A stretch of DNA of 64,000 nucleotides from Bdellovibrionales bacterium (GTDB lineage Bacteria > Bdellovibrionota > Bdellovibrionia > Bdellovibrionales > UBA1609), in the NCBI GenBank assembly GCA_965205945.1, contig CBDBIB010000001.1:480001-544000 (forward strand), given 5' to 3'. Shown here in pieces: positions 37,704 to 43,897 of this stretch. The position numbers were made by a program, and so were the translations under genes. The notes under the pieces are model-generated. The model had not been told where the DNA came from. It saw only the letters and a list, made by a program, of their open reading frames with translations, and ran no database searches. The stretch's first letter is position 1. Each line of letters begins with the position of its first letter.

Positions 37704-40700
37704 TTAATTACCTTCACCTCCACTATCCGGATTTAAATAAAAACTATAATAAAAACTTAAATCAGCTCCACGAGAAAGGTTTCCGGCTGCATCTTGTGCA
37801 ACACCAGAGGCAATGCTAATTGAAGCATATTTACTAGTACTAGTACTACAGCTCCGAAGTATAATCCTTGGATTAATAGTTGTTCCATTTGTTACTGAAA
37901 CTCTACAACTTGTAGCACCTCCAGTAAAGCTGACATCGCTGCTTCGTAGGTTTATACGACTACTAGGGTTTCCAATTACAATTATGGAAAAGTTTATAGA
38001 CATTGATCTACTTTCTACAGGGATTCCAATACTAACAATAGGGGGCTCAGTATCTTTTATTAGGTTTAAAACACCTGAAGTTTTAGAGTTTCCAGCAGTG
38101 TTTGTGATGCTAGCAGTTAGTGAAAGTGGGCCATCACTTAAGCTTGAAAAATCAATATCACCACTAAAGCTTTTATTAGAACAGGTAATAACGCTTGTAC
38201 CATGTGAGAATGTAACCAGCTCACCATCTTCAGAACATGTTCCTGAAACTCTAAAGGCCCCTTGGTTACTAGAGTTAATGTAATTTCCTCGTACAGGATT
38301 TGTAATAGAAATTGTTGAATCATTGTTACTTAAAACATTTATCCACGTCCACACTGTTCCATTGCAAAACTCCAGTTTTTTTTCTAAAGAATTATACCTT
38401 AAAGTACCCTCAGTTAAACTGTCACAAGGGGTTGTAACTGTTCCAATTTTTATTCCGTTTAAAAGCGTAACAGTAGATGTACTAATAGACCCTGGAGCAG
38501 AAAAGTTTCTAGAGACAAAGACATCACCACTATTATCAATAGTGATTCCCTCATCATCGCCGTCTCCACTTAAATAATTTTGATTAAGACTTATATTTAA
38601 TCGAGCTATACTATCTCCCATATTATCAGCACTGCTTGGTAAGTTTATAAGCCGACTTCCATCAACAGCAGGCAGTCTTAAAGAGCTATCAAGCTTAATA
38701 AGCTGATTGCTCCCTGTGCCAACATCTAATCTAGCTGTGCTAATGGTTCCTGAAGTGATCTTTTCTCCATTTAAATCTGGTATATCAGATTTTAATAAAC
38801 TTAAACCCTCAACCACTCTTCCTTTAACATCAACTCTAACTTTTGGGTACGTCCCTGGGGTTACACCCGTTGATGTAAGACTAGGGTTTGGGTAGGTTCC
38901 TGTAAGATCCCCTTGAGCCTGGCTTCCTAAAAGACTTGTGTCTGTCACACATGACCATAAATAAATAGGACCTTCACTCATTTGAAGTTTTTCATTGGCT
39001 TCACAACTAGGCACCCCACCAGCATCCATTGCGTTGCCTCGACTTGTGCCTAAAGAAGCTTTTAAATAACCGTTTAAAAAGTTTGAATGTGTTATTTTTT
39101 TAAGACCACTTTGAGAAACATCATACATTAAAACACTGTCTAAAGAATCAGCCGTAGTTTTTTCTGTAGTTTTGTTAATGTCTACACTTAAACTTCTATC
39201 AGTTGATAAATCTCCGCCTCCACTTAATCCACTGTTTAAAGCCGTTCTAATAGTTCTAGTTATTGGAGCTTTTCTAGATTCAAGTTCATTAAGTGCACCT
39301 TCTACATCTGTAGCCTGAATGTTTCCAAATGGAGTGTAGGTCACCGTGTTTGCCGCCAGACTTGCTAAACTCCAACCTTCAGACACATCCTTACAATTTG
39401 CTCCTCTTTCATCACAAATTTGTGTTATTCTTGCTGTTCCAGCAACGTCTAATAAAGCCTCAGGACTAGCCTTACCAACCCCAACCCTTCCACTAGCATC
39501 AATAATAATTCCCTCATTATCACCGTCTCCACTTAAATAATTTTGGTTAAGATTTATATTTAATCGAGCTATACCATCTCCCATATTATCAGCACTACTT
39601 GGTAAGTTTATAAGCCGACTTCCATCAACAGCAGGCAGTCTTAAAGAGCTATCAAGCTTAATAAGCTGATTGCTCCCTGTGCCAACATCTAATCTAGCTG
39701 TGCTAATGATTCCTGAAGTGATCTTTTCTCCATTTAAATCTGGTATATCAGATTTTAATAAACTTAAACCCTCAACCACTCTTCCTTTAACATCAACTCT
39801 AACTTTTGGGTACGCCCCTTGGGTTACACCCGTTGGTGTAAGACTAGGGTTTGGGTAGGTTCCTGTAAGATCCCCTTGAGCCTGGCTTCCTAAAAGACTT
39901 GTGTCTGTGTCCGTATCAATATCAGCCACGCAAGAATAGCTTATTATAGTACCAGGGTTTCGTTGAATCTTTTCCCCACTAGTACACACAGGAAGAGTGT
40001 CCACTTGCATGAGCTGTCCTAAACCACTTCCTATATCTGCTTCTAAACCCCTTGGCGTAATTTTTAAACCACTTCCTACTTTTACTTTTAATTTATTTAT
40101 ATTAAACTCTAAACCCCCAGAAGAATCTAAATCTAAATCTATGTTTCCACTGTTGTTGTATAAACCCCTACCAAGGTTGATGCTTATTGTTGGGTTGCTA
40201 CCACCTGAAGAAGTTAAAGGAGCATTGACTAAAACACTTAATGCACTACTTAAGGTGCTTAAAACTTCTAAGCTAACACCATTCCAATACTTAAGCGCTC
40301 CAGAGTCACTATTGTACCAAGTAGCCCCAGCATTGCTCATGTTCATAGACCCTAAAAGACTAACTTCTTCTAAATTCGTATAAGAACCTAAGGTCATGGT
40401 ACTTCCTGGGTTTTGCATAATATGACTTGTGTTTAGAATCTGATTATTATTAAAGTTAAGGTCACCTAATAAAACCCCTCCTGTAAGAGGAAGTTTTGTA
40501 TTGTCAGTTCCTGTGGGAACCACTGAGCTTGGTAGAATTCCACTTGTGATTTTATTTGCATGAATACCACTTGCAAGATGACTGTTTAAAACACCCCCTG
40601 GTGCAATTAAAATTGTACCACTGTTTGTAATGGTTCCACCACTTAAGCCACTTCCTGCTGTAATACTGGTTACAGTTCCACTACCTTTACCAACAACAGT

Positions 40701-41474
40701 GGCTGCTGATCCATTGTAGTACATGATTTGATTATTTGTAGAGTTATACCAAATATCTCCTGCCTGAGAATTAGGTGGTGGATGAGAGCTTGAAAAACTC
40801 GGTAAAGAGCTAGCTCCACTGATGCTTAATGGGGAGTATTGATTAGAGCTGCCATTAATTAAAGCCATAAGCTCCCTTTGATTGGCATCATTATCAAACA
40901 CGGTCTCTAAATTGCTTTGAGTAACACCACGACTTACTTGAATAAAATCATTAACAGCTTTTCCACCAAGTTTGCCGGCATACTGAGCATAGGGCACACT
41001 GTGAATTATATGATCATTTGTTAAAGTAAGAGGGCCGCTGCCATGATCAAAAGTTACTCTAAGCCTTCTTGTATCGTTTAAGGTTGGAGTGTATGAAGAC
41101 CCAAAGGCACAACTAAGACTTTTATTGTTTAAAAAAGAATTGTCTAAAGCTTTAGATAAATTTGTTAAGCCTCCATTTCCTGTGTTTATTCCAGACCCAA
41201 CGTTTAAGTTAAAAACTCCCTTTGATCCTATCATATTAAGATTAAAACTTTCTTCGTAAAGAAGACAATGATCCATGGAGGATAAAACTTGAACAAGAAA
41301 GCTGACATTATTTTCTTCTAAAGCGTCTCCATTGGGTTTTACAATTTGACCTTGAAAAACAAAAGAACTTGGGGTGGCTAGAGAATGGGGAGTTAATAGT
41401 AAAATTGTGAAGAAAGTTAGAGCTTTCACACCTATTTCTATGAAATTTTTTAATAAGTCATATACTCTATACAT
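37704..41474 (-). CDS. Bdellovibrio-type MAT/tail-fibre-like trimeric adhesin with Ig-like C-terminal head
   Basis: N-terminal FQGQIVKPNG..LE..VSF......CLLYEE..GVFNLNVGSG..SVPYA; fibre repeats (GTVTSITAGSGLSGGTIT, KVRVDVKGRV, LPAVDGSRL); GTLRYN..LEFCNG..W neck; Ig-like repeats. Likely start is GTG 41429. Confidence 0.85.
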   Translation of the reverse strand: MYRVYDLLKNFIEIGVKALTFFTILLLTPHSLATPSSFVFQGQIVKPNGDALEENNVSFLVQVLSSMDHCLLYEESFNLNMIGSKGVFNLNVGSGINTGNGGLTNLSKALDNSFLNNKSLSCAFGSSYTPTLNDTRRLRVTFDHGSGPLTLTNDHIIHSVPYAQYAGKLGGKAVNDFIQVSRGVTQSNLETVFDNDANQRELMALINGSSNQYSPLSISGASSLPSFSSSHPPPNSQAGDIWYNSTNNQIMYYNGSAATVVGKGSGTVTSITAGSGLSGGTITNSGTILIAPGGVLNSHLASGIHANKITSGILPSSVVPTGTDNTKLPLTGGVLLGDLNFNNNQILNTSHIMQNPGSTMTLGSYTNLEEVSLLGSMNMSNAGATWYNSDSGALKYWNGVSLEVLSTLSSALSVLVNAPLTSSGGSNPTISINLGRGLYNNSGNIDLDLDSSGGLEFNINKLKVKVGSGLKITPRGLEADIGSGLGQLMQVDTLPVCTSGEKIQRNPGTIISYSCVADIDTDTDTSLLGSQAQGDLTGTYPNPSLTPTGVTQGAYPKVRVDVKGRVVEGLSLLKSDIPDLNGEKITSGIISTARLDVGTGSNQLIKLDSSLRLPAVDGSRLINLPSSADNMGDGIARLNINLNQNYLSGDGDNEGIIIDASGRVGVGKASPEALLDVAGTARITQICDERGANCKDVSEGWSLASLAANTVTYTPFGNIQATDVEGALNELESRKAPITRTIRTALNSGLSGGGDLSTDRSLSVDINKTTEKTTADSLDSVLMYDVSQSGLKKITHSNFLNGYLKASLGTSRGNAMDAGGVPSCEANEKLQMSEGPIYLWSCVTDTSLLGSQAQGDLTGTYPNPSLTSTGVTPGTYPKVRVDVKGRVVEGLSLLKSDIPDLNGEKITSGTISTARLDVGTGSNQLIKLDSSLRLPAVDGSRLINLPSSADNMGDSIARLNISLNQNYLSGDGDDEGITIDNSGDVFVSRNFSAPGSISTSTVTLLNGIKIGTVTTPCDSLTEGTLRYNSLEKKLEFCNGTVWTWINVLSNNDSTISITNPVRGNYINSSNQGAFRVSGTCSEDGELVTFSHGTSVITCSNKSFSGDIDFSSLSDGPLSLTASITNTAGNSKTSGVLNLIKDTEPPIVSIGIPVESRSMSINFSIIVIGNPSSRINLRSSDVSFTGGATSCRVSVTNGTTINPRIILRSCSTSTSKYASISIASGVAQDAAGNLSRGADLSFYYSFYLNPDSGGEGN
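38535..39908. repeat. Intragenic ~410-bp direct repeat in the fibre gene (period 963 bp)
   Basis: ~38535-38945 vs ~39498-39908, encoding DTSLLGSQAQGDLTGTYPNP...NQNYLSGDGD twice; near-identical at DNA level. Confidence 0.93.
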
Positions 41475-41481
41475 ATTGTAT

Positions 41482-41508
41482 ATTTCGGATGAAAAGCTTA
41501 ATAATTAG
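41482..41508 (-). promoter_or_regulatory. Putative sigma28 promoter of the fibre adhesin
   Basis: Minus strand CTAA-N15-TCCGAAAT. Confidence 0.45.
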
Positions 41509-41579
41509 AGGGAATTAAATAGTTTTTTAGCTCTAATTCTACATTTTTATTTTCATTTAAAATCTGTGCTTTTGTATGA

Positions 41580-41607
41580 GATGCCGATAAGGAGGATTAT
41601 GTTACTA
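41580..41607 (+). other. XerC/D dif-like recombination site 1
   Basis: GATGCCGATAA-GGAGGA-TTATGTTACTA; 11-6-11 architecture like E. coli dif GGTGCGCATAA-TGTATA-TTATGTTAAAT. Confidence 0.75.
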
Positions 41608-42062
41608 CGTCTATTTTAAAATTATATTTAAGTTTAAAAGTATTTAATTATAAAAGTTTAGACTTTATTTTTTTAAAATTATTATTTTCAATAAAATTTT
41701 TATTATTAAAAATAAGGACTGCTTTAGAATTTACTTTAAAAATATTTAATATTTAATATTCTTTTTTTAAAGCTTAGATTTAAATATCTTTATTTATCAT
41801 AGCTGTTATTTTAACCAGCATCTAAGTTTAAAAGTTATTAAGATACAGCATATGTATTATATAAAATTAAATAATATTTAAAGCGATATTCTTTAAGGTT
41901 TTTTTAATATTTATTTGTATAGAGATATTATTTAAACAAGAAAATCTTGTTAATTAAACGTAACTATTTTGCAACATTTTTATGTCACAAAGAAATTTAC
42001 ACTTAAGCACCATAGTTAAAATCAGCAGGTCAAATCAAAAATAATGTGGTTTTAAGCAGAAA

Positions 42063-42090
42063 TAGTAACATAATCCCCCTTATCGGCATG
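42063..42090 (-). other. XerC/D dif-like recombination site 2 (inverted relative to site 1)
   Basis: Minus strand CATGCCGATAA-GGGGGA-TTATGTTACTA; 26/28 identical to site 1. Confidence 0.75.
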
Positions 42091-42094
42091 TTTT

Positions 42095-42240
42095 GTAAAA
42101 GTACACCATCCATATTAATAACTTTAAAAGTATTCCAACCAGAGATGTTAGGGAGTTACTAAAGCTTCATTACTCAATGCATATGGCTCATATTAGTAAC
42201 ATGTGTAGTTAAGTCGCCATTAACAAGAGTTAAGTTCTTT
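42095..42240 (-). pseudogene. DUF285/BspA-type surface repeat protein fragment
   Basis: KNLTLVNGDLTTHVTNMSHM / (frameshift) SNEALVT / PNISGWNTFKVINMDGV matches the DUF285 repeat 'PDTSGWDTSxVTNMxxMF'; contains stops and frameshifts. Confidence 0.7.
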
Positions 42241-42430
42241 TACCTATTTCTTATATATTTATTCTGCTTAATCCTATCTCATTGTTAAGCAGTGACACAA
42301 TTTAATTTACAGGCCCGATTTTTTCAGAAAAATCTAACTATTTAAACGCTCTAATTCCTAAGATTACCTAGTTTTATCTGCAAAATAGATAAGACTAGAC
42401 CCTTTAAACCTAATATGCTCAAATTATCAC

Positions 42431-43897
42431 GTGTTTATAAAATCTTTTTTATTTTTATCTCTATTATATTTCACTTTAGCAAATGCTGATGTTTCCATTA
42501 AACAAGTGAACGGAGCCTCAAAAATTATCGGAATAGACCCTCCAACAGAAGTCTGGGGTGTTTTTGTGGGAACCTATAAGATTAGTGAGACTAGTACCTA
42601 TAGCAACTGTCCATTTTCCCTCCTAGATGACACCACTAATGGAACAACTGGAACACCCGACCCCCAAAACCCTAACGTTGGAACTTTTCACGGTTGTCAT
42701 GAAAATAGAGTAAACGGCAGTTCCGTTATCTCAATTCAATTTACAGAAAGCGATGAAATTTCAAACTTAAGGGCATATGCTGTTATCAACCCTCCTTTAG
42801 AAAGCACAGGCGCTACAAATAAAAAAATTAGTGAAAGCCTTAATACTGTTTCAGGCTTTAACCAAACTGAGACTGTTACTTTTACATGGAGAGAACTTTG
42901 TCAACAAATAAAAATAAACTCCTTAACATATGCAACTTTTAGAGAAGATACTCAAACTTGCAACGCAAATGGCTCTTTAACTATTGCTGTTGGGTTTGGA
43001 ACTTCACATACAGATTTAATCTCAACAAAATCTATCACCTTTAACCTATACTCCCCAAATCCTGCTCTTGGAGTTATAATAAAGCCTGCTGTTTGTGGAA
43101 GCCCTGTGGGTAATGAGTTTGGCTTTTGTGATTTAGCTATCGTACCTGGGGATGAAGGTGGGTACCTTTATGCAGATACAGACGCTGTTCATCAAAACAA
43201 GCTTCATCAAGCAAGTTTTTCTATTAATACTTTTGACTCTTATGGAAATAGCCTCACTCTTACAAATAATGTTGAAGGCATGAGAATTTTTGTCTCACCG
43301 ACTAGCTTCATAGATGCCCAGCCTAATGTTCCTTCCACCACCACTCATGATTTTACCATTTCAAATATATCTTTAAATATTGCGTCCTTTGAAAATAATA
43401 AGTTTAGTGGCCTTAAAAATAGCACTATAGAAAAACCCTTATCTTATTACGTCAGAGCTTCCACTATAGATTCAAGTGGCACTATCTCTCAACTAATGGG
43501 TGATAGCTACTGCCCAGGGGGAATTTGCAACGAATTTAAAATCTCTCCAAGTCAAGTTGCAGGAATCATCTCTGAAAACTCTTGTTTTATAACCACTGCA
43601 ACTTATGGCTCTGACCAAGCTTACCAGGTTAATTTTTTTAAAGCCTTTAGAAAGAAATTTTTGTTTACTAATAGCTTTGGTCGTAAGATTATTCTTCTTT
43701 ACAACACTTACGGCCCCATAGGAGCTGATTGGATCCGGACACACCCTTTCAGTCAAAAGTATATTCGTATACTTCTTTACCCTTTTTACGGTTTTGCTTA
43801 TTTAAGTGTTCGTTTTAGTATTTTTTTAGCACTCTTAATTTATTTGAATCTAGCTTTCCTCCTCTTTAGTTTGATAAAACGCAAGGTCTTTGAGTAA
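42431..43897 (+). CDS. Exported Cys-containing protein with CFI-box-CTERM domain
   Basis: Signal peptide (ANA|DV); C-terminal SCFITTATYGS..V..FKAFR..L...FGR.....Y..YGP..A..I followed by TM helix and KRK. Confidence 0.85.
   Translation: MFIKSFLFLSLLYFTLANADVSIKQVNGASKIIGIDPPTEVWGVFVGTYKISETSTYSNCPFSLLDDTTNGTTGTPDPQNPNVGTFHGCHENRVNGSSVISIQFTESDEISNLRAYAVINPPLESTGATNKKISESLNTVSGFNQTETVTFTWRELCQQIKINSLTYATFREDTQTCNANGSLTIAVGFGTSHTDLISTKSITFNLYSPNPALGVIIKPAVCGSPVGNEFGFCDLAIVPGDEGGYLYADTDAVHQNKLHQASFSINTFDSYGNSLTLTNNVEGMRIFVSPTSFIDAQPNVPSTTTHDFTISNISLNIASFENNKFSGLKNSTIEKPLSYYVRASTIDSSGTISQLMGDSYCPGGICNEFKISPSQVAGIISENSCFITTATYGSDQAYQVNFFKAFRKKFLFTNSFGRKIILLYNTYGPIGADWIRTHPFSQKYIRILLYPFYGFAYLSVRFSIFLALLIYLNLAFLLFSLIKRKVFE

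Follow-up and report, generated by a model that had tools for sequence, protein, structure and literature searches.

Bacteria that vary expression by inverting a promoter normally employ dedicated invertases to do so, as at fimS of E. coli, an invertible promoter switch served by FimB and FimE, and phages Mu and P1 employ the serine invertases Gin and Cin, respectively, together with an enhancer to flip coding segments that swap the C-terminal exons of their fibres. XerC and XerD are regarded as enzymes of chromosome and plasmid maintenance that have been hijacked by mobile elements. Here we analyse a 64,000-nucleotide stretch of a Bdellovibrionales genome (hereafter the window; C1:480001-544000 of assembly G000, which comprises 1.87 Mb in five contigs at 32.5% G+C), in which an inverted pair of dif-like sites encloses a short segment upstream of a surface fibre gene. 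We read this module as a site-specific inversion switch in which Xer proteins invert a regulatory element and thereby make fibre expression phase-variable, and would place the probability of this reading at about 0.58.

The core site of dif is defined by an 11-6-11 arrangement (PMC5357621). On Rep_3 plasmids of Acinetobacter, oppositely oriented pXerC/D (pdif) sites mediate reversible inversions that were detected by polymerase chain reaction; these sites share a GGTGTA centre, as against TGTATA in the chromosomal dif, and pairs with unequal centres displayed no detectable reversibility (PMC9947245). In mollicutes, XerC is reported to invert DNA and thereby vary the Vpma surface proteins of Mycoplasma agalactiae (PMC11868660), and a part for XerC in surface-protein variation is reported for Ureaplasma parvum (PMC3599477). 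Bdellovibrio itself uses long fibres for prey recognition (PMC10769870). A term search of the main text of that paper returned no mention of phase variation or inversion, and the literature searched contained no invertible promoter with dif-like sites, no chromosomal dif-mimic switch before surface genes, and no phase variation in Bdellovibrio-like bacteria or in fibres of their type.

The fibre-proximal site of the window lies at 41580-41607 on the forward strand (GATGCCGATAA-GGAGGA-TTATGTTACTA; XerC-type arm, centre and a XerD-type arm that faces the segment), and the distal site lies inverted at 42063-42090 on the reverse strand (CATGCCGATAA-GGGGGA-TTATGTTACTA). Arms were assigned from the Acinetobacter chromosomal dif, AGTTCGCATAA-TGTATA-TTATGTTAAAT, written in the C to D direction (PMC9947245). 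Both window sites have the 11-6-11 layout with an inner ATAA/TTAT dyad, they are identical at 26 of 28 positions, the mismatches being base 1 and the third base of the 6-bp centre, and their XerD-type arms TTATGTTACTA point inward. A search of the window with a 27-nt site pattern, allowing up to three mismatches, yielded two matches where 100 shuffles gave an expectation of 0.00. The enclosed segment (41608-42062, 455 bp) has a G+C content of 17.6% compared with 33.7% for the whole window and contains no open reading frame (ORF) of at least 40 residues; an Rfam search of 41300-42500 returned no match at E values up to 1. Its two ends are referred to as A (CGTCTATTTT..., on the fibre side) and B (...GGTTTTAAGCAGAAA, distal). 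A stretch of 105 bp separates the proximal site from the ATG of the fibre gene, a 1256-residue ORF on the reverse strand (37704-41474). The preliminary description of this DNA, made from the letters alone, had recognised the inverted 26/28 pair with inward-facing arms, the AT-rich and ORF-less character of the enclosed 455 bp and the distance of ~105 bp to the fibre ORF, and had stated that the window encodes no recombinase and does not look like the replication terminus. All of this is borne out: none of the five PF00589 matches in the genome falls within the window, and GC skew is negative in 32 of 32 bins of 2 kb. It had also taken the similarity to end within a few bases of the 28-bp sites, which is not so in this genome, as the inverted repeat continues for ~15 bp outward (TGTGCTTTTAYAAAA; 41565-41579 and 42091-42105) and reaches ~43 bp in total.

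The impression of a single unit had to be given up as well. Across the genome there are exactly 18 matches to GATAA-N6-TTATGTTA, of which one is dif and 17 are switch-type sites, and the latter form eight inverted pairs with spacings of 480-540 bp and one solo site. The preliminary description had proposed to ask whether copies cluster at adhesin loci, and they do: all nine switch loci adjoin a paralogue of the window fibre gene, with the sites ~105 bp upstream. The leader between the proximal site and the annotated ATG (41475-41579, reverse strand) is conserved at 9/9 loci, its outer 15 bp lying within the extended inverted repeat. The nine fibre ORFs range from 1256 to 2838 residues, and one of them is cut off at a contig boundary. 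Identity is 98-99% over the first ~2 kb of the genes and likewise over the N-terminal ~930 residues of the proteins, while the C-terminal tips differ; the last 300 residues fall into two groups within which identity is only 74-92%. The segments themselves are also closely related, six other copies being 97.6-98.7% identical to that of the window and the copy at C3_99k 85%. At the solo locus (C1:289271-289432), which adjoins an intact fibre ORF of 1694 residues, only 134 bp of the B end are retained (C1:289299-289432), followed by unrelated AT-rich DNA, and this copy may be locked.

To score the orientation of the segments, all loci were drawn with the fibre gene at the left, and the A end (CGTCTATTTT...) was distinguished from the B end (TTTCTGCTTAAAACCAC..., in the direction from the site into the segment). 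Five loci have the A end next to the fibre gene (C1_68k, the window, C1_651k, C2_116k and C3_589k), whereas the B end is proximal at three paired loci (C2_62k, C2_176k and, as the best fit, the diverged C3_99k) and also at the solo site. Between C1_68k and C2_62k, a proximal stretch of 428 bp (99.5% identity) and a distal stretch of 146 bp (98.6%) are collinear, and the 553 bp between them (98.2%) are inverted; between C1_68k and C2_176k the corresponding figures are 428 bp (99.8%) and 169 bp (100%) for the collinear flanks and 554 bp (98.0%) for the inverted inner part. A 10-bp duplication at the A end is common to these three loci, and we therefore conclude that one and the same segment variant is present in opposite orientations. 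Logan contigs from three runs of one study that match 40800-43300 end at the sites (e.g., 41581-42076 and 41581-42089) and contain no joints; no RNA run was found. Such contig ends are what a repeat graph gives for eight paralogous copies in both orientations, and they do not bear on switching at any single locus.

A second and independent case was found among the four other genomes of the genus that were compared. One of these, the sister species G029, encodes eleven fibre paralogues with ~70% protein identity to those described here, and carries the module at two of them, both intact ORFs (1248 and 1074 residues). Its switch sites, GGTGCTGATAA-TATGGA-TTATGTTACTA and CGTGCTGATAA-TATGGA-TTATGTTACTA, are 27/28 identical. 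When its two loci are compared, collinearity extends over 584 bp of proximal flank (99.8%) and over 188 bp on the distal side (95.7%), and the inner segment of 502 bp is inverted at 99.2% identity. The repeat in G029 is exactly the 28-bp site, since neither the inner nor the outer flanks of its sites are alike, and there is no flank or target-site duplication (TCTTTAACAA vs TCGTAGGAAG). The crossover must therefore be confined to the site, and both homologous recombination and the insertion of a miniature inverted-repeat transposable element (MITE) become poor explanations. Between G029 and the window, the segments are homologous (67% identity over 463 bp), with ~130 bp at the B end best conserved. 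The XerD-type arm of the switch sites is identical in both species, while the centre and the XerC-type arm differ and the sites of a pair are matched within each species. Taken together, the two species make it very likely that site-specific inversion takes place at these sites.

Whether the flips have a function is a separate question, and the strongest competing explanation denies it. The module could be a relic, MITE-like or left by a dif module or by an IMEX (a mobile element that integrates by making use of Xer), which was captured before an ancestral fibre gene, was copied along with it and is now occasionally flipped as a by-product of Xer activity on sites that look like dif. Consistent with this, the segment has no ORF and no Rfam match, its promoter calls are at background, and 9/11 fibre genes of G029 lack the module altogether. 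In addition, TTTTAYAAAA is found on both site flanks in this genome and can be read as a target duplication; TTTTATAAAA is palindromic, however, and hence equally an extension of the inverted repeat, and G029 is without any flank repeat. The position of the module also speaks against a relic, as 9/9 loci have it at the same place before one gene family with both flanks conserved and none lies at an unrelated locus. Of the hallmarks of a MITE, then, the terminal inverted repeats are present, but dispersal at unrelated loci is not seen, and the flank repeat of this genome, being palindromic, is ambiguous as a target-site duplication; the preliminary description had named recurrence of the whole unit with target-site duplications as grounds for refutation, and the unit does recur, albeit together with the conserved flanks of duplicated fibre genes and, in G029, without a duplication. 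Its suggestion of an emptied dif module is not supported: the module is chromosomal, holds no cargo and is always located at the 5' end of one fibre gene family; the cargo genes and plasmid carriage of Acinetobacter-type dif modules are lacking here, there being no ORF of at least 40 residues. Nor are there the direct dif-like repeats at dif that mark an IMEX, as the sites are inverted and ~463 kb from dif. Both orientations between fixed flanks, one of the features by which invertons are recognised, are found among the paralogous loci of this genome and in G029. Finally, the segment has remained conserved (best block 130 bp) between species whose fibres are only ~70% identical in protein, and both sites are intact and pairwise near-identical in each species in spite of the divergence between species, which points to selection on a working pair. 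We regard a relic without regulatory role as an unlikely alternative.

A further question is that of the recombinase. In this genome, PF00589 is matched by a XerD-like gene (302 residues, C2:242734-243642; best model XerD, 263 bits), a XerC-like gene (305 residues, C3:142843-143760; best model XerC, 160 bits), an integrase of 430 residues and a pair of short ORFs (198 and 265 residues). Both Xer genes score below the NCBIfam equivalog cut-offs and are thus named Xer-like. G029 has only two PF00589 matches, and these are the orthologues of the XerD-like (87.8% amino-acid identity) and XerC-like (86.9%) genes, with synteny conserved on one side. Each genome encodes one serine recombinase, of 238 and 576 residues respectively, which are not orthologous (33% identity over 100 residues) and which both sit beside transposase-like ORFs; no gene of the IS110/Piv type scored above the cut-off. 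FtsK with a gamma domain is encoded in both genomes. In G029, the xerC-like gene (C5:535346-536320) lies ~1 kb past the 3' end of one switch-bearing fibre gene, a linkage that is absent from the genome studied here.

Given that the Xer-like pair are the only tyrosine recombinases of G029 and that the sites mimic dif, XerC and XerD are the best candidates, and judging from these sequence data they probably carry out the inversion at the switch sites. It is conceivable that the switch is real but operated by another agent, either an unrecognised dedicated recombinase acting in trans or RecA-dependent recombination between the inverted repeats, in which case the likeness to dif would reflect ancestry or convergence among the sites of tyrosine recombinases. 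The three further PF00589 matches (430, 198 and 265 residues), the 238-residue serine recombinase and the ~43-bp repeat of this genome would all be compatible with such an agent, and switches at several loci under one trans-acting tyrosine recombinase are known, e.g., RecV of C. difficile. Against it, G029 displays the same inversion signature with only two Xer-type tyrosine recombinases, a serine recombinase that is not orthologous and a repeat of only 28 bp. Moreover, 19/22 arm positions of dif are retained in both species despite diverged centres. This explanation is therefore quite unlikely in our view, and the earlier suggestion that host XerCD flips a regulatory segment is supported by the two orientations between collinear flanks in two species, by near-dif sites and by a Xer-like pair as the sole tyrosine recombinases in G029.

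The likeness to dif can be judged against the genome's own site. The eighteenth match to the pattern, AATGCTGATAA-GGTATA-TTATGTTACAA at C1:58571-58598, is found where the GC skew of contig 1 switches sign, positive before and negative after (its cumulative curve peaks at 50-60 kb); G029 has an identical site (28/28 positions), and the remaining three genomes of the genus have nearly identical ones; lying at the skew switch and being conserved in the genus, it is therefore the chromosomal dif. The skew analysis by which the preliminary description had proposed to locate the true dif thus places a single canonical site elsewhere, at C1:58.6 kb, ~463 kb off on the same contig. Relative to this dif, the XerC-type arm of the switch sites agrees at 9/11 positions and the XerD-type arm at 10/11, with the same values in G029, whereas the centres match at only 3/6 positions in this genome and 2/6 in G029. 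The switch centre has also changed from one species to the other (GGAGGA vs TATGGA) while dif is identical. The notion that the window pair is itself the chromosomal dif, or a duplicate of it at the terminus, draws on the 11-6-11 architecture and the XerD-type arm but is refuted by negative skew without a switch across the window, by the skew switch and canonical dif at C1:58.6 kb and by 17 switch-type copies in place of a single copy at the terminus, and its probability is next to nil.

Three observations were made around dif sites in passing. In the present genome, ~0.9 kb separate dif from the 3' end of the longest of the fibre genes (C1:59483-67999). In genome G051, a weak match to the fibre repeats (C5:69009-69218) is found ~0.5 kb from its dif candidate. 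Genome G062, of the same genus, has a second dif-like site, TGATAATTAAACTTATGTTACAA, at a contig end (C94:5-27) and 5.7 kb from a tyrosine-recombinase gene, which may represent an integrated element that exploits Xer.

The position of the segments suggests that their inversion controls fibre expression, and on balance we consider this probable. We infer, more weakly, that a promoter directed outward is contained in the segment, its most likely place being the conserved B end; the flip may also act through some other effect of orientation. A candidate is located there at 42016-42045 on the forward strand (TTAAAA-18-AATAAT, 9/12), which in the present orientation is directed away from the fibre gene. 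The alternative at the A end (41647-41676, reverse strand; TTAAAA-18-TATAAT) has the best score, 10/12, and faces the fibre gene. The B-end promoter is favoured because the B-end block (41930-42062) shows the highest conservation between the two species within the segment and is the sole part retained at the solo locus, and because its hexamers (TTAAAA-N16-18-AAWAAT) are matched at the same alignment positions in G029; the A-end candidate at 41647-41676 is not among the positionally conserved promoter matches. Under the B-end assignment, the window fibre would be OFF and 4/9 fibres would be ON in the assembly.

Two other ideas were rejected. A sigma-28 promoter was considered because GCCGATAA, within the XerC-type arm, and TCCGAWA, close to the start codon, resemble its -10 element. 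It was dropped as the main explanation because flagellin (PF00669) has no match in this genome, which is 97% complete, because -35 fits were poor by eye and because the motif in the arm points into the segment. The possibility that the B end holds a small conserved ORF was likewise discarded, as by eye on the alignment the reading frame differs between the species.

We propose the following mechanism for the switch. A housekeeping pair of XerC-like and XerD-like proteins would bind the two arms of each site, exchange strands across the centre and flip the segment, and the altered centre would prevent recombination between the switches and dif. The shared centre of the Acinetobacter plasmid sites is unlike that of dif, and by the same logic a private centre may insulate the switches here. 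Each fibre gene would be ON or OFF independently, leading to a phase-variable, combinatorial display of fibres with different tips. The fullest form of this proposal, in which XerC and XerD, the resolvase of chromosome dimers, have been co-opted as a genome-wide invertase and dif-mimic sites with a private centre flip a promoter segment before nine fibre genes, is tentative and as a whole somewhat doubtful.

Several observations weigh against a Xer-driven promoter switch. Both orientations have been seen between paralogous loci and between species, and not at one locus in one population. Promoter calls do not exceed the background of AT-rich DNA (11 matches compared with 8.5 ± 3.0 expected, and no terminator-like site), and candidates occur at both ends. 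A conserved TCCGAWA lies ~12 nt upstream of the fibre start, outside the segment; it could be part of a fixed promoter, and the segment would then modulate expression instead of supplying the promoter. The ~43-bp repeat leaves room for RecA-dependent inversion in this genome, which is unlikely for the 28-bp repeat of G029. No recombinase is encoded near any switch in this genome. FtsK is the usual activator of XerD, and with the XerD-type arms facing inward it would have to act from within 455 bp, so that the mode of activation would have to differ from that at dif. Lastly, the centres of the window pair are unequal (GGAGGA vs GGGGGA), and differences between centres went along with a loss of detectable reversibility on the Acinetobacter plasmids; by analogy, the one-base mismatch may slow or lock the window copy.

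The fibre proteins themselves offer few clues, as that of the window has no Pfam match and no sequence relative in the PDB; its N-terminal half lies near phage-tail-fibre-like clusters by language-model features only, which we take as a lead. The genes hold long internal tandem repeats, with matches of ~320 bp every 963-969 bp, and arrays of 75-bp units toward their 3' part (e.g., C1:59600-62000), and it is within these repeats that contigs end. In the window ORF as annotated, the first 15 codons (41427-41474) align to TAA-containing non-coding DNA in the sister species, and a GTG at 41429 is a likelier start, which would give a protein beginning MKALTFF with a typical signal peptide. At two loci a second copy of the fibre leader is present on the distal side of the switch (C1:651554-651729 and C3:590445-590554), the former including an ATG and 13 codons; these copies may have been left by fibre genes that once lay head to head, or by recombination in which switch sites at separate loci took part.

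On the distal side of the window module, a 488-residue ORF begins at 42431 on the forward strand. The flank next to the distal site (42091-42280, 'type 1') is conserved at 6/8 paired loci, and contains at 42194-42204, ~105 bp outside the site, a half-site resembling the XerD-type arm (TAGTAACATGT) without a partner arm. Within the outer 15 bp, TTTTATAAAA forms a palindrome that can also be read as a direct repeat of the flanks, and at three proximal flanks, that of the window included, a variant ending in TTTTGTATGA replaces the outer-flank sequence.

No further instance of the module came to light in the genomes and contigs searched. The other three genomes of the genus have no close fibre homologue, and each contains one dif-like site and no inverted pair. 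With up to two mismatches, the 27-nt site was found in none of 100 other genomes of the family, four of the same genus among them. The exact 22-base pattern had no match in a collection of species-genome contigs, and a protein-based scan of these contigs yielded 95 pattern matches, none of which was confirmed by tblastn. Two patterns applied to metagenome contigs gave zero and two matches, both of the latter being chance hits without a dif-like site. At 18 loci of fibre homologues from 18 genomes of other genera, and at one switch-less locus of G029, neither an inverted dif-like pair nor an inverted 14-mer was found within ~1.5 kb on each side.

If the proposed switch is confirmed, a chromosomal regulatory element derived from dif look-alikes would constitute a third role for Xer, and the private centre would provide a natural example of how new sites are insulated from dif. 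The change of this centre between sister species, while dif stayed constant, would indicate that such switch families can re-code their specificity. For the bacterium, the result would be that fibres for the recognition of prey or surfaces are displayed in stochastic combinations with no dedicated invertase, a form of bet-hedging by which a small bacterium that owns a family of long fibres diversifies its surface. Should Xer activation here still depend on FtsK, each flip would moreover be tied to cell division.

The closest parallel is with the pdif sites of Acinetobacter, which likewise form inverted 28-bp pairs of 11-6-11 layout with dif-like arms and a common centre distinct from that of dif (GGTGTA there; GGAGGA or TATGGA here). 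In both cases the inner DNA is found in both orientations, and host XerC/XerD are presumed to act in the absence of a dedicated recombinase. Unlike the present module, the Acinetobacter sites reside on plasmids and delimit kilobase modules with resistance or toxin-antitoxin cargo that are shuffled between replicons. The pairs described here are chromosomal, enclose an ORF-less segment of 455 bp and hold a fixed position before a family of surface fibres, which is the layout of a promoter switch.

In this respect the module resembles the invertons, such as fimS and the RecV-dependent switches of C. difficile, in which a short non-coding segment between inverted repeats precedes a gene for a surface structure. 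Further shared features are that several loci carry one repeat, that a tyrosine recombinase is the likely enzyme and that ON/OFF heterogeneity is expected. The fimS and RecV switches differ in using dedicated invertases and repeats unrelated to dif, whereas the repeats here are near-dif. With the mollicute systems, the module would share the use of a Xer-family tyrosine recombinase that inverts DNA and varies surface proteins, although the mollicute enzymes are encoded in or near the variable locus and act on short repeats of their own, and no statement that these sites imitate the chromosomal dif was found. As in Mu and P1, inversion would vary a receptor-binding fibre, the likeness of the proteins to phage fibres resting here on language-model features. 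What flips in those phages is coding DNA, while in the Bdellovibrionales module it is a non-coding segment upstream of complete genes.

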